In this document: piece after piece, positions 593-11,089 of the stretch
Numbering within the stretch: position 1 is the stretch's first letter
Layout: every line of letters begins with the position of its first letter
Assembly (NCBI GenBank): GCA_019894975.1
Contig: JAGXNO010000075.1
Coordinates: 1 to 11,089 of the forward strand
Direction: 5' to 3'
Length of the DNA stretch: 11,089 nt
Origin: Promethearchaeota archaeon
GTDB lineage: Archaea > Asgardarchaeota > Lokiarchaeia > Sigyniarchaeales > SOKP01
Position numbers and translations under genes: made by a program
The notes under the pieces: generated by a model
Seen by the model: the letters and a program-made list of their open reading frames with translations, nothing else
Told to the model about the DNA's origin: nothing
The model's database searches: none

Positions 593-892
593 TTACATAT
601 TTATTATTGAATCGCTTTTAAAAATTAAATCAATCACATCATCAGAGGCAATTAATTTAATTTTATCTGAAATAAAATTAGACAATCCTCGGATTTCTAT
701 GTGCTCTTCACACGCAGCGACTTTTTTATTTTGATTGAGAGCTTGTGAAACTGCTTTATTAGATTTATTAGCAAAATACACTGCATTTTGAAGCAAAAGA
801 ATTGTTACATCATCTTCTTCAGTATGTTCCATAGCAAGTTCTACACCTGTAATATCTTCGCTTGTTATAAAATATAAAACTTTTTTGCTCAC
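593..892 (-). CDS. dsrH: DsrH/TusB-family sulfur relay protein
   Basis: ILLLQNAVY and EHIEIRGL...LI...VIDLI motifs; about 100 aa; third gene of an E-F-H trio. The start is likely GTG at 892 (GGAGG about 10 nt upstream) rather than TTG at 901, which nearly abuts the GGAGG. Confidence 0.85.
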   Translation of the reverse strand: MSKKVLYFITSEDITGVELAMEHTEEDDVTILLLQNAVYFANKSNKAVSQALNQNKKVAACEEHIEIRGLSNFISDKIKLIASDDVIDLIFKSDSIINM

Positions 893-906
893 CTTAATCA
901 AACCTC

Positions 907-1251
907 CTAAAATGGTATTGCAACAGTTGAATCTTCAATCATTTTCAAAATTTCACCGTGTTCTTTTACTTCAACTTGATCGATTAAATCATTTTTAGTA
1001 AGTCCCCGTTCATTAAGAGCCTTCCTATCTACATAGATGTCAAGATCTATATTTTTTATGAAATCTATGTGCATAGAATACATTGTTTTATCCACATCCT
1101 TAAGAAAGGCATAGACACCATCATTTATAGCAATGGTTATCGGTTCAAAATCACCACTAAGGGCGACAGTCATTCTTAAACCTTCAACAGGATAAAGCGT
1201 CCCCTGAGGAGGTTGCCGTAAAAGAATAACTATATTTTTTTCTTCTGACAT
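907..1251 (-). CDS. dsrF: DsrF/TusC-like (DsrE-family) sulfur relay protein
   Basis: PPQGT..VEGLRM, INDGVYAF, YVDRKALNERGL and a C-terminal IPF. No Cys. AGGTGAT SD-like motif upstream. Confidence 0.8.
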   Translation of the reverse strand: MSEEKNIVILLRQPPQGTLYPVEGLRMTVALSGDFEPITIAINDGVYAFLKDVDKTMYSMHIDFIKNIDLDIYVDRKALNERGLTKNDLIDQVEVKEHGEILKMIEDSTVAIPF

Positions 1252-1262
1252 TTTTTATCACC

Positions 1263-1625
1263 TTAACAAATTACTACTAGTCTATCAGTTTCATCTATAA
1301 TTTTCGCAAGATCAGGCGTGCCTGCTCTTTTCACATCGCCACATTCCTTTTTTAGACAGTATTTCATGGTACCCCTAACTAAAAGACAGAGGTTGCATAA
1401 TCTTACCGTAGCGCCCTTCTTCAGGATTTCTTTAAAACCCTCTTCGATGTTGAATATCCCTTCGATTTTTTTCTGGTTTTCTAAAAGCGCATTCACCGCA
1501 TCCATGTAGCAAAAAACACGAACTTCATGCCCTTTATCCAATGCGGCATTAGCTAACCTTACTACTGTTTCAGGGGCTTGTGTTTGATAAGGCCCGCTAA
1601 AAAAAAGAATTCCCAGTCGTGACAT
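1263..1625 (-). CDS. dsrE: DsrE/TusD-family sulfurtransferase
   Basis: SGPY, LANAALDKGHEVRVFCYMDAV and LCNLCLLVRG (Cys at the DsrE/TusD persulfide position, within a CxxC). Confidence 0.88.
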   Translation of the reverse strand: MSRLGILFFSGPYQTQAPETVVRLANAALDKGHEVRVFCYMDAVNALLENQKKIEGIFNIEEGFKEILKKGATVRLCNLCLLVRGTMKYCLKKECGDVKRAGTPDLAKIIDETDRLVVIC

Positions 1626-1650
1626 CTTTTTTCATCAACTCCATCTTATA

Positions 1651-2715
1651 TTAATTTTTTCTCCACATAAAAAGTAGATAAGCCATCAACCAACAACCGA
1701 GGATAATGAATACCCCAGATAATAGGCTTCCGAGAGAAAGAAGTGGAAAACCGCTTAAAATGTTACCTATATTGCATCCCATAGCTATGATTGCTCCAAT
1801 TCCCATCGCTAATCCACCAACAAATTGAATCAAGATAGTTTTTGCATGTTTAGGGGTTCTCAACTTGAATTCTTTTGCTATAATCGCACTAATAAAAGCA
1901 CCAATAACAATCCCTATTACTAACCATGTTTCCCAACCTAATACTGAATTAACTCCTGTATTCCAGAATTTATTCCAGCCGACCCAACCACCTGTAATCC
2001 CTAAAGGATAATTTCGACCAGATGCCGCTGAAGTCACATAAGCAAACGATGCTATTATTCCTATTGCAACTGCGGTTACAGCCCAATGCCATCCTTGTTT
2101 GAAAGTTTTTTGCCCAAAATTGGAAAAATCAAGCATGGGTTTATTTTCTCTTTTTTTTGCTCGTAATTCACGCCATATCCAAAAATAAGCAATTAAAGCA
2201 ATTCCTACTATACCAATGATTAACATAAATATTGGTGTGAGATCTCCAAAAAGTGTAAGTGCAGTGTTATCTGAGTACGTGATTTTTGTACTATCTTGTA
2301 AAGCTTTAGCTATGGGGTTAAGTGCTCCAACTTTCGTAAAATAAGCACCACCTGCAAACCCTAATAAAGCAACTAGTGAACCCATCATACCTTCTCCTAC
2401 TCGGTATGTAGTTCCACTTGCGCATCCAGCGGCTAAGACCATTCCGACTCCGAAAATTAACCCTCCGATAATGTTAGCACCCCATGCAAAATGCTTAGGA
2501 TTTAATGTAATTATGTCCGCAAATGACATTATTGCAAAACCTAACATTGACAGAAGTATTGCTAGTGCTACTGATTTTGCTAATTTGTACTCTTTTAATA
2601 ATATAACATCTCTAAAAGCAGAATTCATGCAAAACCTTCCTCGCTGTAATACAAATCCAAAAATAATTCCTAAAATTAATCCAGGAATTAACGCATACTG
2701 TATATCTATTGCCAT
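1651..2715 (-). CDS. yeeE: YeeE/YedE-family sulfur-compound (thiosulfate-type) transporter
   Basis: Polytopic 354 aa protein with GFVLQRGRFCM, GGLIFGVGMVLAAGCASG and GGLAMGIGAIIAMGCNIG, which carry the three conserved Cys motifs. AGGTGA SD-like motif upstream. Confidence 0.93.
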   Translation of the reverse strand: MAIDIQYALIPGLILGIIFGFVLQRGRFCMNSAFRDVILLKEYKLAKSVALAILLSMLGFAIMSFADIITLNPKHFAWGANIIGGLIFGVGMVLAAGCASGTTYRVGEGMMGSLVALLGFAGGAYFTKVGALNPIAKALQDSTKITYSDNTALTLFGDLTPIFMLIIGIVGIALIAYFWIWRELRAKKRENKPMLDFSNFGQKTFKQGWHWAVTAVAIGIIASFAYVTSAASGRNYPLGITGGWVGWNKFWNTGVNSVLGWETWLVIGIVIGAFISAIIAKEFKLRTPKHAKTILIQFVGGLAMGIGAIIAMGCNIGNILSGFPLLSLGSLLSGVFIILGCWLMAYLLFMWRKN

Positions 2716-2728
2716 TTTTTCTTTTCAC

Positions 2729-2962
2729 CTATTTTATTTTAACCAATATTTTCCATTCAGAAGCTCCAACTTTGTCAGTTGAAAGAACTTCATTTCCCAT
2801 TGATTTCATTGTTTCAGGAATTCTTTCTGCTGAAAGAGGATAATCTATCAAGATTTCTAGAACTTCTCCTGAATTCATTTTTTTAGCTTTCCTCTTACTT
2901 TTGACATCAGGGTAGGGACAAACCTCCCCTCTACAATCTAATGTTTCTGTAACATCAACCAT
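2729..2962 (-). CDS. tusA: TusA/SirA-family sulfur carrier (YeeD/YedF-like)
   Basis: 77 aa; LDCRGEVCPYP (CPxP motif); GEVLEILIDYPLSAERIP. Confidence 0.93.
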   Translation of the reverse strand: MVDVTETLDCRGEVCPYPDVKSKRKAKKMNSGEVLEILIDYPLSAERIPETMKSMGNEVLSTDKVGASEWKILVKIK

Positions 2963-2990
2963 TTTTTTTCACTTTTTTATCAATTTTTAG

Positions 2991-3003
2991 TTACAATTTG
3001 TAA
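2991..3003. promoter_or_regulatory. Palindromic operator candidate 1 (TTACA-ATT-TGTAA)
   Basis: Perfect 5-3-5 palindrome about 28 nt upstream of the tusA start. Bracketed by a 12-bp inverted repeat (TTTTATCAATTT 2975-2986 / AAATTGATAAAA 3002-3013). Confidence 0.75.
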
Positions 3004-3017
3004 ATTGATAAAATAAA

Positions 3018-3053
3018 CAATATTAAGAAATTTATAAAGATTTCTTAATATTG
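3018..3053. promoter_or_regulatory. TATA box (TTTATAAA 3031-3038) inside a 14-bp perfect inverted repeat; probable promoter of the tusA operon
   Basis: CAATATTAAGAAAT (3018-3031) / ATTTCTTAATATTG (3040-3053). Purine-rich BRE-like AAGAAA precedes the TATA on both strands. Confidence 0.6.
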
Positions 3054-3137
3054 AGTATATAGTAAAAGTAGCGTATATATCTAGTAATATATCTTTTTTA
3101 AATCTTTACATTCCTTAATGTATTCGTATAAATTCAC

Positions 3138-3150
3138 TTACAAAATGTAA
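3138..3150. promoter_or_regulatory. Palindromic operator candidate 2 (TTACA-AAA-TGTAA)
   Basis: Same motif, upstream of the TTATAATTATAA TATA-like element (3165-3176) of the lrp gene. Confidence 0.75.
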
Positions 3151-3197
3151 CATAATTATCAAAATTATAATTATAAGGGAATTATTAATAAATAATC

Positions 3198-3210
3198 TTA
3201 CAATTTGTAA
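3198..3210. promoter_or_regulatory. Palindromic operator candidate 3 (TTACA-ATT-TGTAA)
   Basis: Same motif, exactly 60 bp from site 2, over the expected lrp transcription start. Confidence 0.75.
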
Positions 3211-3239
3211 CTAGAATTAACTGAAATTCTTATGGTAAA

Positions 3240-3848
3240 ATGGATACACCTAAGAAATTTAAAAAAAAATTAAAGCTAGATAAGATCAACATTGAACTTT
3301 TCAAGTCTTTAGATGAAGATGGAAGGATAAATTATTCAAGAATCGGAAAAAAATTTGGTCTATCTCATGTTGCTATAAAAAACCGGTATGAAAACCTAAT
3401 AAAAAAAAATATTATTAAACCAAGCCTGTTAGTTAATTTTTCAAAGTTAGATTTCAAATTAGCAATTTTATTATTAGAATTAGAAACTGAGAGTCTTGAC
3501 AAAATAAAAGATATCTATTCTAAATGTCCCAGAGTTTTATTCTCTTTTAATTTAATAGGTGAATATAATCATCTTTTATTATTTTTTGCTGAAAATTTAG
3601 AAACTATAGAAACAATTTTTAATTCCTGTATGCTATATAATTTGAAGGGTGTGAGAAAGTCGAATATCCTACTATTTGGAAGTTTAAAAGAGGATCTCTT
3701 TTTACCTTTAAATTTATCTCAACTTGACCAACAAAATGAAAATACACCATGTGGAACTTGTTGCAAGTTTTGTAAATCTTTTATTAAAGGACAATGTATT
3801 GGCTGCCCAGCATCAAAATATTACGAGGGACCGTTAAAAATAACCTAA
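3240..3848 (+). CDS. Lrp/AsnC-family transcriptional regulator with Cys-rich C-terminal extension
   Basis: N-terminal LDKINIELFKSLDEDGRINYSRIGKKFGLSHVAIKNRYENL HTH; RAM-like domain (LIGEYNHLL, GVRKS); tail PCGTCCKFCKSFIKGQCIGCP. Confidence 0.9.
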   Translation: MDTPKKFKKKLKLDKINIELFKSLDEDGRINYSRIGKKFGLSHVAIKNRYENLIKKNIIKPSLLVNFSKLDFKLAILLLELETESLDKIKDIYSKCPRVLFSFNLIGEYNHLLLFFAENLETIETIFNSCMLYNLKGVRKSNILLFGSLKEDLFLPLNLSQLDQQNENTPCGTCCKFCKSFIKGQCIGCPASKYYEGPLKIT

Positions 3849-3949
3849 TTCCAATATAAATTTCTTTATTTAAATAAAAAAATTAAATCTTAAGGATTAA
3901 AACCTAGATATTTTTTGTTTGGTAAGGCTGTATTTACTTTATCTATTTG

Positions 3950-4729
3950 TTAAACATTTTTATTTTTTGATCTTCTTTTCTTTACTGCTCGAGTCTTATA
4001 CAATTCAACATATAAATAACGATCCATTTTCATCCAATATTTACATTTAACGACTCCTTTTTGTATTAAATCATCAGGAATACTTTCTTTTGTAATTATT
4101 CCTTTATTATTATCTTTTTTATGAACATATTCATAAATCCATGATGGAATCTTTTTTGCGTTTCCAAACCCTAATTTTTCATATATCACATCAATATATT
4201 CTTTATTGTCTGCACCTTGAATTTCACAAGAAACATTAATGAGCTCACTAATTGGTAAATGTTCGGGTTGATATTTATTATATATTTTTTTTACTTCAGC
4301 ATTGTAATTTTTGACAGATGGAAAGGTTTTGCATTGTTCAATAAACGCATCTCTCATAACTTCAAAAAATTTAGTGCTCAATATTAATACTCTATAAACT
4401 TTTATGACTTGAGAATATACATCTACCAACATTAAATTCAACTTTTTTGGACAAGTTTCCTGTAAAATTTTTTTATAGTTATTAACCTCCATTTCTGGAT
4501 AAAGACAATTTGAATAAGTAACATCACACCAATCTAAGTTTCCGATTTTAAATAATAGAAAAAATACGTTGGGTCTTACAATGAGTTTTAGGTTTATATT
4601 CTCTGATTTATATGCTTTAATTTCTTGTTTTGAAGGGATTTTCATACCAACAATTAAATTACTATTAATGTAGTCAAATTCTATAAAATCTTTATTCCAG
4701 GAAAGCTTCTGATGATATTTTTCATTCAT
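3950..4729 (-). CDS. Hypothetical protein (259 aa)
   Basis: Long ATG-initiated ORF in AT-rich DNA with protein-like composition; no family confidently recognised. Confidence 0.75.
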   Translation of the reverse strand: MNEKYHQKLSWNKDFIEFDYINSNLIVGMKIPSKQEIKAYKSENINLKLIVRPNVFFLLFKIGNLDWCDVTYSNCLYPEMEVNNYKKILQETCPKKLNLMLVDVYSQVIKVYRVLILSTKFFEVMRDAFIEQCKTFPSVKNYNAEVKKIYNKYQPEHLPISELINVSCEIQGADNKEYIDVIYEKLGFGNAKKIPSWIYEYVHKKDNNKGIITKESIPDDLIQKGVVKCKYWMKMDRYLYVELYKTRAVKKRRSKNKNV

Positions 4730-4841
4730 GCTATTCTATATTTTCCAACACTTTTTACAATCTATTTAAATCAGTAGGATTTATCTCAATTAAGGTAAAT
4801 TAGATGTTTTTTGGTTCATATTAATTTAAATATTTTTTTGA

Positions 4842-4854
4842 TTACAGATTGTAA
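4842..4854. promoter_or_regulatory. Palindromic operator candidate 4 (TTACA-GAT-TGTAA)
   Basis: Same motif, followed by C as at sites 2 and 3, in the divergent gap between the hypothetical gene and the hesB-like/tlpA/ccdA operon. Confidence 0.7.
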
Positions 4855-4954
4855 CCTAAATATCTTAATATTCTTTCAAATTAAAAAAATATAAATTAAG
4901 ATTTAAATTAAATATTTTTATATAGAAATTTTCTAAAAATATGACTTTATAACT

Positions 4955-5284
4955 ATGAATGTGACTTTTTCGAATAAAGCGAGTGATTATATTAAAAAAA
5001 AAAATATTATTAATATTTTGGTAAAAATTTCATTTTTTATACAAGGTTGTGTTCATATTTATGAACCGAAATTAGAACCAATTCCGATAGATAAATTAGG
5101 AAATTTTGAGAAAAATGAACGGATTATACTAAATGGATTTACTATACTTCTATCAGATCAATTTCTAAAGATATATAATTCCCAAGAAGAGCTCCATATT
5201 GATTTGCAAAAATTCCCAAATCAAAAGCTAATATTAAAAAATCTCGATCCAATTATAATTCAAACATGCAAAATAGATAAATAA
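4955..5284 (+). CDS. HesB-like / CC-Se-motif-like small protein
   Basis: MNVTFSNKASDYIKKK...QGC...EP...LNGFTILL...LHIDL...KLIL resembles the HesB/IscA-like CC/Se family layout. One Cys at the motif and one near the C-terminus. Confidence 0.55.
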   Translation: MNVTFSNKASDYIKKKNIINILVKISFFIQGCVHIYEPKLEPIPIDKLGNFEKNERIILNGFTILLSDQFLKIYNSQEELHIDLQKFPNQKLILKNLDPIIIQTCKIDK

Positions 5285-5305
5285 GTAAAATTAAAAACTT
5301 TTAAA

Positions 5306-5980
5306 ATGTCAACAGAAAATAATAATTCAGATCAAAATACTAATACTCATAGAAAAGTACACTATAGGCTCGTTCGTTACAAAAAACTATCAAAATCTTA
5401 CTATAACAAATTTTTGACTCTATCTATCGTGATTTTCCCTACTATTATCGTAGTTGCATTATTAATTTCAGGAGGAATTTTTGATAACATGTTTAATGGA
5501 GGGGCCCCTAATATACCCACGATCCCTGATAACCCTACTGAACCTCCCACGGAACCTTATAAATCCGATATCACTTTAACAACAATTTATGGTCAGAAAA
5601 TTCAATTAGCAGATCATCAAGGTAAAGTAGTAATTATTTACTTTTTTGGTACTCACTGCCCTGGATGTCCAGAGCAAGCAAGTATTTTAGCAAATATAGA
5701 TGATATATACACTAGTAGTCAACTATATATAGTTCCAATATGCCTTGATACAACCGCTGAGACATCTAATAGTGAATTAGATGATTGGTTAGGAGGATAT
5801 GATCCTAATTGGCCAGTTATACGGGATACCGTTCAATATACGTATGCAAGTTATTTCAATCTAATGTACAAACCAACAGTGAAAATATTAGATATAAATG
5901 GAGATATTGAAGCTACAATGGTGGGTACAACACAAGGTAGTTTCAACAATATTAAAACACAAGTGGATGCTTTATTATAA
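5306..5980 (+). CDS. Membrane-anchored TlpA/ResA-like thioredoxin (redoxin domain)
   Basis: One TM helix, Pro-rich linker (PNIPTIPDNPTEPPTEP), LADHQGKVVIIYFFGTHCPGC, and YKPTVKILDINGDI with the cis-Pro. Confidence 0.88.
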   Translation: MSTENNNSDQNTNTHRKVHYRLVRYKKLSKSYYNKFLTLSIVIFPTIIVVALLISGGIFDNMFNGGAPNIPTIPDNPTEPPTEPYKSDITLTTIYGQKIQLADHQGKVVIIYFFGTHCPGCPEQASILANIDDIYTSSQLYIVPICLDTTAETSNSELDDWLGGYDPNWPVIRDTVQYTYASYFNLMYKPTVKILDINGDIEATMVGTTQGSFNNIKTQVDALL

Positions 5981-6004
5981 AAATTTAATTATCAAATTCT
6001 AAAA

Positions 6005-6733
6005 ATGTTTGATCTTGGATTATTTTTTATAGCAATTGGTGGAGGTATATTGTCTTTTTTAGCACCATGTAATATTGGCACACTACCAACTTTTATAGCA
6101 TATATTCAAGGTCAAACCAATTCAACTAAAAAGGCTATACTTATGAGTTTAGCGTTTTCTGTTGGATTTATCGCATTATTTACAATCGTTGCGACTCTTT
6201 TTATTGTTATATCTGGGTTTATACGTTATATTTTTTGGATAAAAATAATATCAGGCATTATTATAATATTAATGGCATTTTATCTTTTCTTCAGCAAATT
6301 TAATAAAAAAAAACCTCAAAACTATAAACCAACACAAGTAGAGGAGGAAGCTTTAAAGAACATTTATGGTATTAAACATGAAGAAGAAGAAAAAAAACAT
6401 CAAGGAATTTTAGGAGCAATAATTCTTGGGTGTTCTATGGGTTCACCTTGGATTGCCTGCATTACACCAATCTATCTATCCATCGTGACTATAGCTATGA
6501 ATCAAGAAACTTTTATTTTTGGATTTTTATTATTTTCTTTTTACGCGATAGGATTAATGATACCTTATATCCTTATAGGAACCGCATTAGGACTTATTAA
6601 CCAAAGAGTAATTGTTAAATTCTTTAAAATTAGTTCATGGTTGCAAAAATTCTTTGCTATATTATTAATTTGGATAGGAATTGAATTTTTACTGTCTGCA
6701 TTTGGTATTGGGGGGTTGCTACCTTTTATTTGA
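6005..6733 (+). CDS. ccdA: CcdA-family (DsbD transmembrane domain) electron transporter
   Basis: GGILSFLAPCNIGTLP, PWIACITPI, FYAIGLMIPY; about 6 TM helices. Confidence 0.88.
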   Translation: MFDLGLFFIAIGGGILSFLAPCNIGTLPTFIAYIQGQTNSTKKAILMSLAFSVGFIALFTIVATLFIVISGFIRYIFWIKIISGIIIILMAFYLFFSKFNKKKPQNYKPTQVEEEALKNIYGIKHEEEEKKHQGILGAIILGCSMGSPWIACITPIYLSIVTIAMNQETFIFGFLLFSFYAIGLMIPYILIGTALGLINQRVIVKFFKISSWLQKFFAILLIWIGIEFLLSAFGIGGLLPFI

Positions 6734-6756
6734 GTTTTATGGGTGTTATTTTAAAT

Positions 6757-7437
6757 ATGAATGTTGATATAATTATTGCCTTTGTTTCTGGATTAACTAT
6801 TGGTGCTACTCCATGTATTTTATTAATGGTTAGTGCTTTTGGTACTTCACTTATTTTAATAGAAGAAGAATTGAAATTTATAAAAATTGCTATTGGGTTA
6901 ATCTCGGGTCTAATCTTTGGTTATATTCTAATCTCGATACTGTTTCTCTTTTTCTTTCCCTTTTTGGAAGTTTTATATTTATTCAAGTATTTTTTTGCGG
7001 GAATTTTAATTTTAATTGGAATTTGGCAAATAATTGAGTGTAAAAAAGAAGATAGTATTATATTTGGTACTCCTGAAAAAGTTAAGAAAGTATTAAAGGA
7101 TTTTATTGAAAAAAAGACAGGTTTTTATGCCTTCCTGGTGGGAATTATTTTTGTTCTCATAAAAATGCCTTGTTTTGGAGGTGTTTATTTAGCATTAATA
7201 TATAATCTCCATACCAACCCCTTACTTTATGTATTCATCTTTGTATATTTAGTAGGGTTGGTTATTCCAATAATAACAGTTCTTATTCTTCTTAGATTGG
7301 GATTAGAGTCAAGAAAACTTAATGATTTTAGACTAAAGTATAGAACACAATTAAGAATATTAAGTGGGGTTATCATAATTTTTCTTGCTTTTTATTTATT
7401 AATACTAGATGATTTAATCAATAGTTTATTAATTTAA
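6757..7437 (+). CDS. Second CcdA/DsbD-transmembrane-like protein
   Basis: GLTIGATPCILL, KMPCFGGVY and YLVGLVIP; both redox Cys retained. The likely start is ATG 6757 (GGGTG upstream); the track uses TTG 6730. Confidence 0.8.
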   Translation: MNVDIIIAFVSGLTIGATPCILLMVSAFGTSLILIEEELKFIKIAIGLISGLIFGYILISILFLFFFPFLEVLYLFKYFFAGILILIGIWQIIECKKEDSIIFGTPEKVKKVLKDFIEKKTGFYAFLVGIIFVLIKMPCFGGVYLALIYNLHTNPLLYVFIFVYLVGLVIPIITVLILLRLGLESRKLNDFRLKYRTQLRILSGVIIIFLAFYLLILDDLINSLLI

Positions 7438-7450
7438 GAAAAGAAAATTT

Positions 7451-7705
7451 ATGACCAAATTAAATAGGTTTAAAAGAGATAATTAGTATGAAGTTTCTCG
7501 AGAAGAAATAAAAAGATATACTTCTGTTGATCATAAAAATGTATAGGGTGTAGTTCATTTGTATTGGATCGCCTTGTATTGATATTTACTTATGATTTTG
7601 AACGTCATAGCGTCAAAGGAATAAACCTTCAAAAATACGTCGTTGGGCGTGAGTAGATTCATGCATCCCTAAAGCAATAAATCTACCTTCTGTATCTTAT
7701 TTATC
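7451..7705 (+). pseudogene. Decayed 4Fe-4S dicluster ferredoxin gene (same family as the gene at 1-179)
   Basis: ATG 7451 MTKLNRFKRDN*YEVSREEIKRYTSVDHK; frameshift in the A-run 7535-7539; CIGCSSFVLDRLVLIFTYDFERHSVKGINLQKYVVGRE*; second shift; SCIPKAINLPSVSYL. The 3' end is approximate. Confidence 0.8.
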
Positions 7706-7829
7706 TCTCATCTTTGAAATGCTTTTTATAAAAATTATTGGACTGAATGAAAAGAAGTCAATTATTAATAAATAATTTATTATTGAATTCCAATTTTTAC
7801 TATACAATTTAACCCAGGTATTACGAAAA

Positions 7830-8612
7830 ATGAGACCACATCATAAGGAATCCATAGATAAATTGGTAGAAAGTATTAAACAAGATAACAGATTTTTAGC
7901 GCTTATTATTGGTGGATCCGTCGCAAAAGGCATGGAGAGAGAAGACTCGGATATTGATATCGTTCTTGTAGCCACTGATGAGGAATTCGAAAAACGAAAA
8001 AAAAAATCCATATTTATATATTATGAACAGAAGTTCTGTAATTATCCAGGAGGCTACGTAGATGGAAAAGTTGTCGACCTACAATTTTTAAGAACTGTGG
8101 CTGAAAGAGGGAGTGAACCTGCCAGAGATGCTTTTCGAGATGCGTGGATTGCTTATTCGAAAACTCCTGAACTTGAAGATATCTTAAATAAAATTCCTGT
8201 ATTCCAAAAAGAGGAAAAACTGAAAAAAATTAGAAAATTTTATGCTCAATTTGAATGCGCTAACTGGATTATCAAGGAAGCGGAGAGAAGAAACGATGAC
8301 TACCTGTTAACACGAGGAATTACAGATCTAATACTATTTGGCGGCAGATTAATCCTTGAATATAATGAGATTTTATATCCCTTTCATAAATTATTTATGC
8401 AAACTCTAGAAAAAGCACCTGATAAGCCTGAGAATCTAATGTCTTTGATAAATTCTTTATTGAATGAAAGGAATTTTAAAAATGCTGAAGTATTTTATGA
8501 TGCAGTAAAAAATTTCAGGAAATGGGAAACCCAAAAGTTTTGGGCGATAAGATTTCTACTTGATACTGAGTGGGCATGGATTAATGGAAAACCATATGTA
8601 GGAGATCTCTAA
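7830..8612 (+). CDS. Pol-beta superfamily nucleotidyltransferase domain protein
   Basis: IIGGSVAKG..EDSDIDIVLV (GS...DxD) plus a downstream VD; helical C-terminal domain. Confidence 0.85.
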   Translation: MRPHHKESIDKLVESIKQDNRFLALIIGGSVAKGMEREDSDIDIVLVATDEEFEKRKKKSIFIYYEQKFCNYPGGYVDGKVVDLQFLRTVAERGSEPARDAFRDAWIAYSKTPELEDILNKIPVFQKEEKLKKIRKFYAQFECANWIIKEAERRNDDYLLTRGITDLILFGGRLILEYNEILYPFHKLFMQTLEKAPDKPENLMSLINSLLNERNFKNAEVFYDAVKNFRKWETQKFWAIRFLLDTEWAWINGKPYVGDL

Positions 8613-8759
8613 AAGAACAACGAAAAAAAAGAGATGAACGTGGTCTAATACCAAAGACTTTTATAGAAACTAACCTTCCTAAAAGATGAATCCATGCATT
8701 CCTCCTCTTGAATCGCTCATTAAAGATATTTTTATCAACAAAATTCCTGATCTTCAAAT

Positions 8760-9317
8760 TCAATAATAAATTTTATCTGTTATAACCTTTCTTTTATCTG
8801 AAATATCTATTCCTTCCATTTCCAGAAGTTTTCGCTTCATTTCAATACCACCTTGATATCCACCAAGTTCTCCATTTGTTTTAATCGCTCTATGACAGGG
8901 TATAATTATAAGAAAAGGATTCTTAGCTAAAGAATTTCCAACAACTCTTGCACCGTTCGGTTTACCAATTTTTTCCGCAATTCGCTTGTACGTACTAACC
9001 CATCCCCTCGGGACTTCGGATTCCGCTATAAGTACTTTCTTTTGAACTTCAGAACATGTATTAAAGTCAAGTAGCTCTAAATCGAATTCTACTTTTTCTC
9101 CTTTAAAGAACCGTTGGATTTTCTCTCCAATGGATGTGATCTGTGAAGATGAGCCAGCACTAATTTGTTCGAAAGATTCAAGAGCTTTAATTTTGGATTT
9201 AAGTTGAGGATCACTAAGAAATACACGCTGAATCCGTAAATTAGAGTCAACTTCCCTCCATACAATAGTAAAAGTATCAAAAGGAGAAGAAAAAGTTGAG
9301 TAAAATAGATACACCAT
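8760..9317 (-). CDS. ogt: Methylated-DNA--protein-cysteine S-methyltransferase
   Basis: VPRGWVSTYKRIA, ARVVGNSLAKNP, IIPCHRAI active site, LGGYQGG..MKRKLLEMEG. Confidence 0.95.
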   Translation of the reverse strand: MVYLFYSTFSSPFDTFTIVWREVDSNLRIQRVFLSDPQLKSKIKALESFEQISAGSSSQITSIGEKIQRFFKGEKVEFDLELLDFNTCSEVQKKVLIAESEVPRGWVSTYKRIAEKIGKPNGARVVGNSLAKNPFLIIIPCHRAIKTNGELGGYQGGIEMKRKLLEMEGIDISDKRKVITDKIYY

Positions 9318-9388
9318 ACTAAATCACTAAAATCAATAAAATACAAAAATTTAATTATTTGGGAGTGTTTTGATCTATATCATAAAAT

Positions 9389-9460
9389 GGGCCTATGGAT
9401 TAGTGGAAGATCGTTTCCTTGGCATGGAAAAGGCCGCGGGTTCAATTCCCGCTAGGTCCA
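9389..9460 (+). tRNA. tRNA-Ala (anticodon GGC), intronless, CCA not encoded
   Basis: Acceptor stem GGGCCTA/TAGGTCC with G3:U70; D-stem GATT/GATC; anticodon arm TTTCC-TTGGCAT-GGAAA (GGC at 9421-9423); T-arm GCGGG-TTCAATT-CCCGC; discriminator A. Confidence 0.97.
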
Positions 9461-9480
9461 TAACTTATTCTTGATTCTGG

Positions 9481-9493
9481 TTATTTTTTTTTT
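9481..9493 (+). terminator. Oligo-T terminator after the tRNA
   Basis: TTATTTTTTTTTT about 20 nt downstream of the tRNA 3' end. Confidence 0.55.
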
Positions 9494-9609
9494 ATATAAA
9501 TTATTTTTCTATTCCATAATATTTCTAATTCATTGAGAAAATTAACATCGTAATTAGATTGAACAAAATGGGGTAAAGAGAAAAAAAGAGAATTCCCTAA
9601 TTAAAATTA

Positions 9610-9655
9610 TTTTCTGAAAAAAATTAAATATTCAGAAAAACATACTATATGTATG
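9610..9655 (+). promoter_or_regulatory. vapBC promoter with two inverted repeats (probable autoregulatory operators)
   Basis: TTTTCTGAA (9610-9618) / TTCAGAAAA (9631-9639) flank TTAAATA (9624-9630). CATAC-TATAT-GTATG (9641-9655) overlaps the ATG. Confidence 0.6.
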
Positions 9656-9913
9656 ACAATCCAAGATAAGACTATTGTTGGAAAAAAGGGAGAAATACTT
9701 CCGAAAAAACTTTTAAGAGATATGGCGGGAATAAATCCAGGAGATGAAGTACTGATAGAGGCTTTTAAGGGTGAATTAATAATCAAGAAGATCTATTCGA
9801 TAGACGAAGCCTTGAGTATGCCGGTTATTGATTCAGGGACTCCTACAAGTATTGAAAAGGATCTTGAAGAAGAAAGATTACTACAGGAGAAATTGACAAA
9901 TGAAGAACATTAA
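9653..9913 (+). CDS. vapB: AbrB/MazE/SpoVT-family antitoxin (VapB-like)
   Basis: VGKKGEILPKKLLRDMAGINPGDEVLIEAFKGELIIKK swapped-hairpin motif; acidic tail; overlaps the PIN gene by 14 nt. Confidence 0.88.
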   Translation: MTIQDKTIVGKKGEILPKKLLRDMAGINPGDEVLIEAFKGELIIKKIYSIDEALSMPVIDSGTPTSIEKDLEEERLLQEKLTNEEH

Positions 9914-10397
9914 GCCACTCATACTTGACACAACATTTATCTTACCTTTATTCGGTATAAAAATTAAGATCGATGATGATTTTGAAAGTGATATTAAACG
10001 AGTTTGGAAGAATGAGATTGATGGCTATGTTGTTTATTTACCATCAACATGTCTGATTGAGACGGTATTCAAATTATTAAATGTGTACAAGAAAACAAAT
10101 GATTTTAATGTTTTAGATAGATATCAAATGATTCTTCCTACATTGCTTAACTTACCAATCAATATCTTTAATTGTGAATTGAATCCAAAAGCAAGTATGA
10201 TTGCTTCAGTTATAAGACATTATGGACATCCTGATTTTATGGATTGTTGGATAGCTGCGACTGCAGCAGTATTGAATGGAATCTTTCTGAGTGAAGATGT
10301 AGAATTAAAAAAAAATTTAAAGAATATTCCAGAAACAAAAAATCTATCAGTATCCTCTTGGAAGGAATTTAAAATGAAGATAAAAATGAAGAAATGA
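9900..10397 (+). CDS. vapC: PIN-domain toxin (VapC-like)
   Basis: ILDTTFIL, LIET, DFMDCWIAATA and LSED supply the four PIN acidic residues. Confidence 0.9.
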   Translation: MKNIKPLILDTTFILPLFGIKIKIDDDFESDIKRVWKNEIDGYVVYLPSTCLIETVFKLLNVYKKTNDFNVLDRYQMILPTLLNLPINIFNCELNPKASMIASVIRHYGHPDFMDCWIAATAAVLNGIFLSEDVELKKNLKNIPETKNLSVSSWKEFKMKIKMKK

Positions 10398-10534
10398 CTA
10401 TCCTTAGGATAGATCTTATTTTACCTTATATCATTTTTAATATTTTAAGTTGAATATTTATTAAGGAAGCACCAGGAATTATATTTAATAGAAAGTTCAA
10501 TTTTAAGGTCTAAAATGGCAGATTTAGGACCTAA

Positions 10535-10711
10535 AGTTTCACTACAGGGAATCGAATTCTTCCTTTTTATCATTCATCTCTTCGCAATATTCCTTCATTA
10601 CATAAACTTGCCCCAGATCCTGAGTTACAAATTCATCCAGATACCGCAAAGCAACTTAAAATTGAGGATGGGGAGTGGGCATTCGAATGGAAAGGTAAAT
10701 TCAGAGTCTGA
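10535..10711 (+). pseudogene. Fragment of a molybdopterin (bis-MGD) oxidoreductase C-terminal dinucleotide-binding domain
   Basis: Frame bounded by TAA 10532-10534 and TGA 10709-10711, with no start codon: SFTTGNRILPFYHSSLRNIPSLHKLAPDPELQIHPDTAKQLKIEDGEWAFEWKGKFRV. It matches TTGxR...HS..R....L....P.P...IHPxxA..L.I.DG.W. Confidence 0.85.
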
Positions 10712-10752
10712 TTTCAATGAAAATAAGAAGTTAATTTTTATGGAATTTATGG

Positions 10753-11089
10753 TTAGATTGTTTTTGAAAATCTTTCTTTATTCTTTGTTTCTTGAACCAA
10801 AATCGCAAAATTCTTGGCAACATCCTCTGTTCTGGAAAATGAGGGAATGTTATACTCGCCATATAGCCGTGACATTTCTAACGATCCTTCACTTTCCATT
10901 ACTGAATAAAAAAAAACAGGTTTTGGGTATTTCGCTATGCGTTCCAGCATCGGTTTCATATAATCTATGGTTCCACCAGGTCCTCTTGGACCACCGGGCA
11001 TTGCTGTGAACAATCCTTCTATTTTAGGTTCTTCTAAAACAGCTTTTTGAATTACTTGCATAACGTTTCCAAAAGAACCCATCATACGG
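10753..11089 (-). CDS. Acetate/acyl-CoA ligase (ADP-forming) alpha-type protein, C-terminal part (5' end outside window)
   Basis: Frame open to the window edge. KYPKPVFF....G....LYGEYNIPSFSRTEDVAKNFAILV resembles the C-terminus of the succinyl-CoA-ligase-like flavodoxin domain. Confidence 0.65.
   Translation of the reverse strand, partial: RMMGSFGNVMQVIQKAVLEEPKIEGLFTAMPGGPRGPGGTIDYMKPMLERIAKYPKPVFFYSVMESEGSLEMSRLYGEYNIPSFSRTEDVAKNFAILVQETKNKERFSKTI

Follow-up and report, generated by a model that had tools for sequence, protein, structure and literature searches.

The regulator locus and its genes

We analysed the entire 11,089-bp contig JAGXNO010000075.1 (C148; hereafter the window) of a Promethearchaeota archaeon, which belongs to a metagenome-assembled genome of 3.9 Mb (95% complete, 31.6% G+C), against a comparison set of 161 related genomes of the class (G-numbers, with G000 for the window genome; L-numbers denote individual loci). 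The window contains a tusA-yeeE-dsrE-dsrF-dsrH operon, a divergent gene for an Lrp/AsnC-type (FFRP) regulator with a cysteine-rich C-terminal tail, and a second operon, orf109-tlpA-ccdA, which continues into another membrane protein gene and a decayed ferredoxin gene (Table 1). A 13-bp palindromic box, TTACA-N3-TGTAA, recurs in the spacers. Sequence comparison supports the view that the Cys-tailed Lrp and this shared box tie together the tusA-yeeE-dsrEFH operon, the regulator gene itself and the spacer between orf259 and orf109-tlpA-ccdA.

The gene content of both operons and the divergent AsnC-type regulator gene were verified by Pfam and NCBIfam. A preliminary description of this DNA had listed the two operons, the Lrp gene and the ferredoxin pseudogene as we found them; its "hesB-like" gene (here orf109) and its second ccdA proved to have weak similarity to those families, and it had overlooked orf259. 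The palindrome that it reported upstream of both operons and of the regulator is present, with three boxes rather than one in the tusA-lrp spacer.

Table 1. Genes and boxes of the regulator locus (positions in the window)
Feature	Position	Strand	Description
dsrH/tusB-like	593-901	-	PF04077 E 2.9e-9; TIGR03011 49.0 bits (cut-off 49.2); last relay gene of operon
dsrF/tusC-like	907-1251	-	PF02635 E 1.2e-6; TIGR03010 38.4 bits (cut-off 94)
dsrE/tusD-like	1263-1625	-	PF02635 E 1.8e-18; Cys77/Cys80 in RLCNLC motif
YeeE/TsuA-type sulfur (thiosulfate) transporter	1651-2715	-	PF04143 E 1e-87, profile positions 1-310 of 310
TusA/YeeD-like sulfur carrier	2729-2962	-	PF01206 E 5.9e-21; CPxP motif VCPYP at residues 14-18; first gene of operon
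Box S1	2991-3003		TTACAATTTGTAA; 28 nt upstream of tusA ATG; kept in G071 and both G108 copies
Box S2	3138-3150		TTACAAAATGTAA; 147 bp from S1, 60 bp from S3
Box S3	3198-3210		TTACAATTTGTAA; 29 nt upstream of regulator ATG; putative autoregulation site
Regulator	3240-3848	+	202-aa Lrp/AsnC (FFRP); CPR motif in RAM domain; C-terminal C-x3-C-x2-C-x7-C-x2-C tail
orf259	3950-4729	-	259 aa; between regulator and second operon, divergent from orf109
Box S4	4842-4854		TTACAGATTGTAA; between the divergent genes orf259 (112 nt away) and orf109 (100 nt away)
orf109	4955-5284	+	Small protein with two Cys (C32, C105); remote resemblance to HesB/CC_Se; opens the module
TlpA/ResA-like thioredoxin	5306-5980	+	AhpC-TSA, Redoxin and Thioredoxin_8 matches; hydrophobic N-terminal segment (membrane anchor); CPGC site
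CcdA/DsbD-type thiol-disulfide transporter	6005-6733	+	PF02683 E 5.2e-10; C22 and C152 invariant in 7 orthologues
Second polytopic membrane protein	6730-7437	+	Two "PC" motifs; candidate divergent CcdA
Decayed 2x[4Fe-4S] ferredoxin gene	7451-7718	+	tblastn with intact G103 gene: three frames, stops, lost Cys

A 13-bp box shared by the operons and the regulator gene

The box occurred exactly four times in the window, each time in intergenic DNA, where dinucleotide shuffles gave an expectation of 0.01; none of 200 shuffles reached four. S1 and S3 both read TTACA-ATT-TGTAA. The spacing of S1, S2 and S3 in the tusA-lrp spacer was nearly the same in G071 (148/60 bp), and the two copies of the locus in G108 had 148 bp plus 69 or 65 bp. 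TATA-like runs stand directly before S1 and S3, and likewise before S2 and S4. S4 sits in a divergent spacer because orf259 separates the lrp gene from the second operon.

Two further structures lie in the spacer between tusA and the regulator gene. Between S1 and S2, an inverted repeat with 19-nt arms (3013-3058; 89% complementary, 8-nt loop) is conserved in relatives, and S1 is flanked by perfect 12-nt arms (2975-3013) whose axis is shifted by 3 nt. Either may represent an additional operator or form a hairpin in RNA.

Across the whole genome we found six exact boxes, four of them those of the window, against three for a reversed control pattern. One of the two additional sites lies inside a 409-aa HdrC/D-like open reading frame (ORF), and the other, at an hdrB/hdrA2 junction, is not kept in the orthologous DNA of G067 and G103. 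Relative genomes carried 5-15 exact copies each against 5-10 for the control pattern, and in the four of ten relatives sampled the extra W-centred exact sites were mostly inside ORFs. Intergenic W-centred sites with one mismatch near gene starts of G000 front unrelated genes (nucleoside hydrolase, CbiM, HD, NUDIX, dipeptidase and others). We therefore rejected an extended regulon with an Hdr link; since the two additional exact copies are at background level and lie within an ORF or are unconserved, and the one-mismatch sites stand before unrelated genes, the predicted regulon is local, with no further credible site in the genome.

The regulator is an Lrp-like protein with an invariant cysteine module

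An AsnC-type winged helix-turn-helix (HTH) was detected at the N-terminus of the regulator (PF13412, 23.4 bits against a cut-off of 21.9; PF13404, 26.9 against 27), and helices 15-55 of its model superposed on Lrp structures. The RAM domain was weak by sequence (PF01037, E 0.018). Using the AlphaFold2 model (pLDDT 83), Foldseek matched about 150 columns to the archaeal and bacterial Lrp/AsnC structures 7fby, 2cyy, 2e1c and 1i1g (E about 1e-9, target TM-score 0.77-0.82), and an extension of about 50 residues remained at the C-terminus beyond the Lrp-matching part. According to this model, the regulator is a complete Lrp/AsnC fold with an extra tail.

Alignment of 81 family members showed that C96, C171, C175, C178, C186 and C189 were invariant in all of them, with P97 conserved in 96%, R98 in 93% and C130 in 69%. 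Relatives of the window regulator came only from uncultured Promethearchaeota/Promethearchaeia, that is, Loki-type Asgard archaea, apart from those in an exhaustive profile-free search. This search gave about 200 clusters at E < 1e-10, of which the best-scoring ones (about 190 aa) aligned over the full length; the named members belonged to Korarchaeota, Thermoproteota, Euryarchaeota and Helarchaeales. Modelled alone, the tail reached a pLDDT of 88. It had no PDB match by Foldseek or VIA and no solved relative by profile search, and DUF3795 matched 5 of 58 tails weakly (best E 0.03), the window's own tail not among them.

The box accompanies orthologues of the regulator

Clear orthologues of the regulator were found in about 14 of the 161 genomes. 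An exact box stands just upstream of the orthologue start in G071, G103, G067, G108 (two copies), G107, G028, G005 and L140, including orthologues with 47% (G028), 52% (L140) and, in another family, 41% (G005) identity; the 29-nt gap between box and start was kept in G071, G103, G067, G108 and G028. One-mismatch boxes precede the orthologues of G040 (two copies), G147 and L138, and the exact box was absent from all 16 paralogue loci (30-35% identity). Because the form of the box fits FFRP operators and it is kept upstream of orthologues and not of paralogues, the adjacent Lrp is a candidate binder, to which the co-occurrence of box and regulator likewise points.

Among 30 tusA-yeeE-dsrEFH loci examined, five carried an exact box before tusA: those of G000, G071, G156 and both copies in G108, all but that of G156 adjoining the regulator. 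Five of 28 orf109-tlpA-ccdA loci carried the box (G000, G071, G067 and G132 exactly, G103 with one mismatch), and all five also had orf259. At the place of S4, G071 and G067 have the exact box, G132 has two copies, and the box of G103 differs by one mismatch. Both operons carry the box only where a Cys-tailed Lrp orthologue or orf259 is present. Absence of the motif upstream of ccdA/tlpA orthologues would have spoken against the Lrp/operator link that the preliminary description drew between the operons; the motif is there, upstream of all five orthologous copies with orf259.

The tusA-yeeE-dsrEFH operon

The five-gene operon occurred in the same order in 43 of the 161 genomes. The best NCBIfam match of the YeeE protein was TsuA (NF052577; 309.7 bits, against 117 for YedE), although the equivalog cut-off of 400 was not reached; NF041049 gave 187 bits against a cut-off of 645. 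It aligned over its full length to the S. thermophila YeeE structure 6LEO (E 2.5e-66), with C29, C97 and C313 pairing with the functional C22, C91 and C293, and the YeeD-contacting arginines were conserved. YedF gave the best NCBIfam score of the TusA-like protein. All three DsrEFH-like proteins scored below the NCBIfam cut-offs for the TusBCD/DsrEFH type I equivalogs, the DsrE-like protein reaching 30.8 bits against 89 for TusD. YeeE copies that adjoin the regulator form a high-identity group (at least 66% in tblastn alignments), and other copies had 52-64% identity.

DsrC/TusE and DsrA were undetected in the 95%-complete genome (PF04358, TIGR02064), so that a role of DsrEFH in dissimilatory sulfur metabolism is unlikely here and was rejected for this genome. 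SelD with an in-frame TGA indicates that selenocysteine is used, and a selenium role may therefore apply to the cargo.

A small PF04060 "putative Fe-S cluster" protein is encoded on the same strand 61 nt after dsrH (325-531, -), possibly as the sixth gene of the operon. Proteins with this domain are also encoded close to Cys-tailed Lrp genes in G040 and G147 and at the distant loci L148 and L152.

The orf109-tlpA-ccdA module and orf259

The orf109-tlpA-ccdA module was present in 26 of the 161 genomes. Family scores of orf109 were below threshold (PF01521, E 0.017, 15.8 bits against a cut-off of 26.3; NF041239 (CC/Se), E 0.003), with a CC_Se atlas feature at 0.91. Alignment of 22 homologues showed two invariant cysteines, C32 and C105, with no C-G-C, so that the three-Cys signature of HesB/IscA is lacking. 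The predicted complex of orf109 and the first CcdA scored 0.10 against a mark of 0.32 and was not used as evidence either way. The second membrane protein had no Pfam match even at E 10; its weak hhalign match to the profile of the first CcdA (11% probability, E 0.003) is collinear and pairs both cysteines, and it is possibly a divergent CcdA.

The intact counterpart of the decayed ferredoxin gene is a 112-aa ferredoxin gene that follows the second ccdA in G103. At the other end of the window, the 3' end of an intact ferredoxin paralogue (3-179, +), cut by the contig end, has 52% identity over 58 aa to the pseudogene's ferredoxin.

For orf259 we obtained no Pfam or NCBIfam match, no atlas features and no usable structure. 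It occurred in only 5 of the 161 genomes, always beside a box-bearing copy of orf109. On sequence, the target of S4 may be orf259, the orf109 operon or both.

Genes beyond the second operon (7830-11009) are unrelated: a nucleotidyltransferase (7830-8612), Ogt/MGMT (8760-9317), tRNA-Ala(GGC) (9388-9461), a MazE/AbrB-like and PIN toxin-antitoxin pair (9653-10397) and a 164-aa ORF without assigned identity. An Rfam scan of the window gave a single match, a tRNA.

Neighbours of the regulator and its family

The tusA-yeeE-dsrEFH operon adjoins regulator orthologues in eight loci. The two operons are adjacent in G000 and G071 only; elsewhere the regulator goes with one module alone, namely the ccdA module in G103 and G067 or the tusA-yeeE-dsrEFH operon in G108, G110, G119, G125 and L138, or with other cargo. 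In G028 and G005 this is a divergent TauE/SafE gene, and the spacer contains one exact and one one-mismatch box. G107 has a pyridine-nucleotide-disulfide oxidoreductase whose best matches are the N-terminal part of NirB and CoA-disulfide reductase, and L140 and G040 have a Thioredoxin_3 gene with ArsP_1 permease, FMN reductase, SBF/ACR3-like and ArsR genes. A cluster of Fer4, GcvH-DGC fusion, DGC and DUF166 genes lies nearby in G103, G067, G110 and G155.

A recurrent cluster beside the regulator (L034:16-3558, L035:3382-7520, L042:21-2200 and L140:1-2271) comprises ferredoxin, the GcvH-DGC fusion, DGC-domain proteins, DUF166 (DfsP-like) and ArsR-x-DGC.

Of the six distant family members sampled, with 34-37% identity, all but one are paired with a divergent TauE/SafE gene, and the remaining one lies by hybrid-cluster-type and metallo-beta-lactamase-fold proteins; the TauE-paired members were sampled from Korarchaeota, Euryarchaeota and Helarchaeales. 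One distant locus has a TTTCA-ATT-TGAAA box 3 nt before the regulator start. Divergent pairs of TauE/SafE and Cys-tailed Lrp were seen at L148, L149, L150, L152, L153, L044 and L047 (Korarchaeota, Euryarchaeota, Helarchaeales and two Loki lineages), and this pairing looks like the commonest arrangement of the family. Judged from the predicted gene products, the theme of the neighbours is sulfur-anion transport and thiol/redox chemistry, not amino-acid metabolism.

A proposed regulon and its alternatives

We consider it fairly probable that the locus is a local, autoregulated and probably repressive regulon answering a sulfur or thiol-redox signal, with the Cys-tailed Lrp as the candidate regulator acting on the 13-bp box. 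What is shown are the genes, the boxes with their counts against expectation, and the way box and regulator occur together across genomes; from these we infer binding, the sign of regulation and the effector as follows. Since S1 and S3 lie 28-29 nt before start codons and follow TATA-like runs, bound Lrp would most likely block the core promoter, being positioned between TATA and the transcription start or over the B recognition element (BRE)/TATA, which is the classical repression mode of archaeal Lrp proteins. The Lrp on these two boxes would repress tusA-yeeE-dsrE-dsrF-dsrH and its own gene. S2 probably enables bridging or wrapping of the tusA-lrp spacer by an Lrp oligomer, where the 147/60-bp spacing would suit multi-site contact, and S4 would bring orf259 and/or orf109-tlpA-ccdA with its second ccdA-like gene under the same control.

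Sensing would be by the six-cysteine module, formed by Cys96 of the Cys-Pro-Arg motif and the tail, rather than by the usual amino-acid pocket; the module might hold a metal or Fe-S centre, or react directly. The signal would be the thiol-redox state or one of the sulfur species sulfane sulfur, thiosulfate and sulfite. As for the cargo, the TsuA-type channel would import thiosulfate or sulfane sulfur and TusA with DsrEFH would relay it for non-dissimilatory use, and tlpA-ccdA would send reducing power out to an outward-facing thioredoxin.

Several observations weigh against this proposal. S4 is some 100 nt away from both start codons, a position as compatible with activation or a long leader as with repression, and TATA assignments are unreliable in DNA of about 23% G+C. 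The regulator gene of G110, G119 and G125 follows dsrH, and a half-site or one-mismatch site, with no exact box, precedes tusA there. At the P0037 locus (L136:6940-6990), with a 67%-identical orthologue, a half-site is followed by three direct repeats of CAATTTTAAACATA and no palindrome. G132 (92% complete), with two boxes before orf109/orf259 (L057/L147), and G156 (95% complete), with one before tusA (L130), yielded no regulator orthologue. In the closest relatives, overall identity of the intergenic DNA is 81-84%, which makes conservation of the box there weak evidence by itself. Foldseek, VIA and profile searches gave no structural or family match of the tail that points to its chemistry. 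Finally, a paralogue in G000 (30% identity; C93:23735-24292, L154:3227-3790) lies upstream of the genes for the small and large subunits of a NiFe-hydrogenase, and the signal of the family may therefore be general redox or Fe-S status.

A different account of the cysteines would make the tail a structural zinc knuckle and let the RAM pocket bind a metabolite (cysteine, methionine or a precursor), the whole being a sulfur-starvation feast/famine switch. We regard it as unlikely but deserving of attention. Wherever the ligand of a characterised Lrp/FFRP protein is known, it is an amino acid or a related small molecule bound in the RAM domain; the regulator's best structural matches are ligand complexes of this sort, and bacterial YeeE/YeeD uptake serves sulfur assimilation (PMC11073785). 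However, the invariance of Cys96 and the five tail cysteines in 81 members from several phyla exceeds what a structural site usually needs, and the commonest partner, TauE/SafE, is named for sulfite/sulfonate export rather than uptake.

The preliminary description had read the two operons as a single circuit, in which an external sulfur or selenium compound is reduced by TlpA/CcdA and the product is then taken in by YeeE and distributed by TusA/DsrEFH. Adjacency of the operons under a common box in G000 and G071, co-occurrence of the modules in 13 genomes where independence would predict about 7 (with no correction for relatedness) and the use of selenocysteine by the genome agree with such a pathway, but we think it distinctly unlikely as one co-evolved unit. 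The operons are independent modules, most copies of each have neither the other module nearby nor a box, and the regulator can accompany just one of them or different cargo; the linear pathway is therefore unsupported. As to the suggested substrate, sulfur fits the thiosulfate-type score of YeeE and the retained Cys triad of the thiosulfate relay, which argue against a selenium-type YedE, and selenium is left with the SelD evidence.

It is highly unlikely, in our judgement, that the cysteines of the regulator serve to detect arsenite, selenite or a similar thiophilic metalloid or metal, with the locus forming part of a detoxification island. The orthologues of G040 and L140 do lie among ArsR, ACR3-like SBF, ArsP_1 permease, ArsH-like FMN reductase and DGC-domain genes, and several neighbour families include selenoprotein members; yet the commonest cargo (the tusA-yeeE-dsrEFH operon and TauE) has no known metalloid role, and Pfam detected no ars genes in the window.

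We likewise think it highly unlikely for the palindrome to be the operator of another factor, or a promoter or structural element travelling with the locus, for although the boxes of G132 and G156 lack a detectable regulator and S1 sits within the larger, offset palindrome, the regulator is the sole gene adjoining the box in every lineage, the box has the canonical FFRP form, its fixed 29-nt distance to the regulator start is typical of autoregulation, and orf259, the other binder considered, is ruled out by its absence from most box-bearing loci (G107, G028, G005, G108 and L140).

Comparison with known systems

The putative operator has a close precedent. Lrp/FFRP proteins typically bind palindromes of 13-15 bp, often ahead of their own genes. 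SELEX (systematic evolution of ligands through exponential enrichment) with four archaeal FFRPs gave a preferred 13-bp duplex, abcdeWWWedcba, with AAT/ATT as the optimum centre (Yokoyama et al., PMC2715240), and the box of the window has this form and this centre. Like FL11, Ss-LrpB, TvFL3, LysM and LrpA, the regulator combines the HTH with the RAM fold (Foldseek E about 1e-9, TM-score about 0.8), and it shares with archaeal Lrp/FFRP proteins a box before its own gene and several phased sites per control region. It differs by the tail of about 50 aa with five invariant cysteines and the invariant Cys-Pro-Arg in the RAM domain, and by a predicted cargo of sulfur transport and thiol redox instead of amino-acid metabolism.

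By gene content, the first operon matches the yeeE-tusA-dsrEFH type II (YTD) cluster of sulfur disproportionators and cable bacteria (PMC13293266), since in both the genes for a YeeE-like transporter, for TusA and for a DsrE-like protein are clustered with two small DsrF/H-like genes. Here, however, the cluster belongs to an archaeon, tusA leads the operon and a predicted Lrp-type operator lies upstream. DsrC and (reductive) DsrAB are reported to accompany the cluster in 74% of YTD carriers (PMC13293266); the delivery to DsrC/DsrAB proposed for the cluster cannot apply here, because DsrC/TusE and DsrA are undetected. Compared with YeeE/YeeD (TsuA/TsuB; PMC11073785; PDB 6LEO, 8K1R), the window pair shows the full-length alignment, the three relay cysteines, the YeeD-contact arginines and the CPxP partner, whereas its YeeE stays below the equivalog cut-off, DsrEFH-like genes follow, and thiosulfate is a predicted substrate.

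The second operon resembles CcdA-TlpA/ResA systems in its CcdA with two membrane-embedded cysteines and its membrane-anchored thioredoxin with a CxxC site. It differs in that the module always begins with the two-Cys HesB-like orf109 and that a second CcdA-like membrane protein follows here; nothing seen in the window suggested a context of cytochrome c maturation.

CstR, BigR and SqrR are bacterial repressors that sense sulfane sulfur or persulfides. The window regulator resembles bacterial persulfide repressors as a Cys-based local repressor, in our proposal, beside TauE-type exporters, YeeE-like importers, TusA/DsrE carriers and CoA-disulfide-reductase-like enzymes; the protein families are unrelated (CsoR and ArsR in bacteria), and sensing is shown there and proposed here. 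If sulfur or thiol sensing holds, the regulator would be their functional counterpart. A wider and more speculative idea, which we put forward tentatively, is a pan-archaeal Lrp class in which the six-Cys module, probably with an Fe-S or metal centre, replaces amino-acid sensing and reports sulfane sulfur, thiosulfate or sulfite. TauE/SafE would be its ancestral partner, Loki-type lineages would have captured the YeeE-TusA-DsrEFH and CcdA-TlpA operons, and the class would be an archaeal counterpart of CstR/SqrR/BigR on another scaffold. To our knowledge, archaeal sensing and regulation of sulfur trafficking are largely unknown, and SurR of Thermococcales is the only well-known sulfur-responsive archaeal regulator. 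A bacterial parallel is the ArsR-type SoxR of Hyphomicrobium, reported with the YeeE-like SoxT (PMC10451225, PMC11582611).

In the literature searched we found no description of the Cys-tailed Lrp subfamily, its operator or its sulfur cargo. The Cys-Pro-Arg motif with the five-Cys tail is a signature of roughly 200 sequence clusters across archaeal phyla, and the locus offers a compact regulator-operator-target set in Asgard archaea that is open to testing. It also provides a non-dissimilatory setting for the YTD cluster, over whose role in bacteria there is debate. Should the tail prove to sense sulfur or redox, sensing in the Lrp family would include a second principle besides small-molecule binding in the RAM pocket; regulator, box and cargo together indicate a putative, undescribed archaeal way of sensing sulfur chemistry. 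Thus, the Lrp operator, the YTD cluster and CcdA-TlpA are known parts, and what appears new by comparison is the Cys-tailed Lrp subfamily with its operator and its sulfur-centred cargo.

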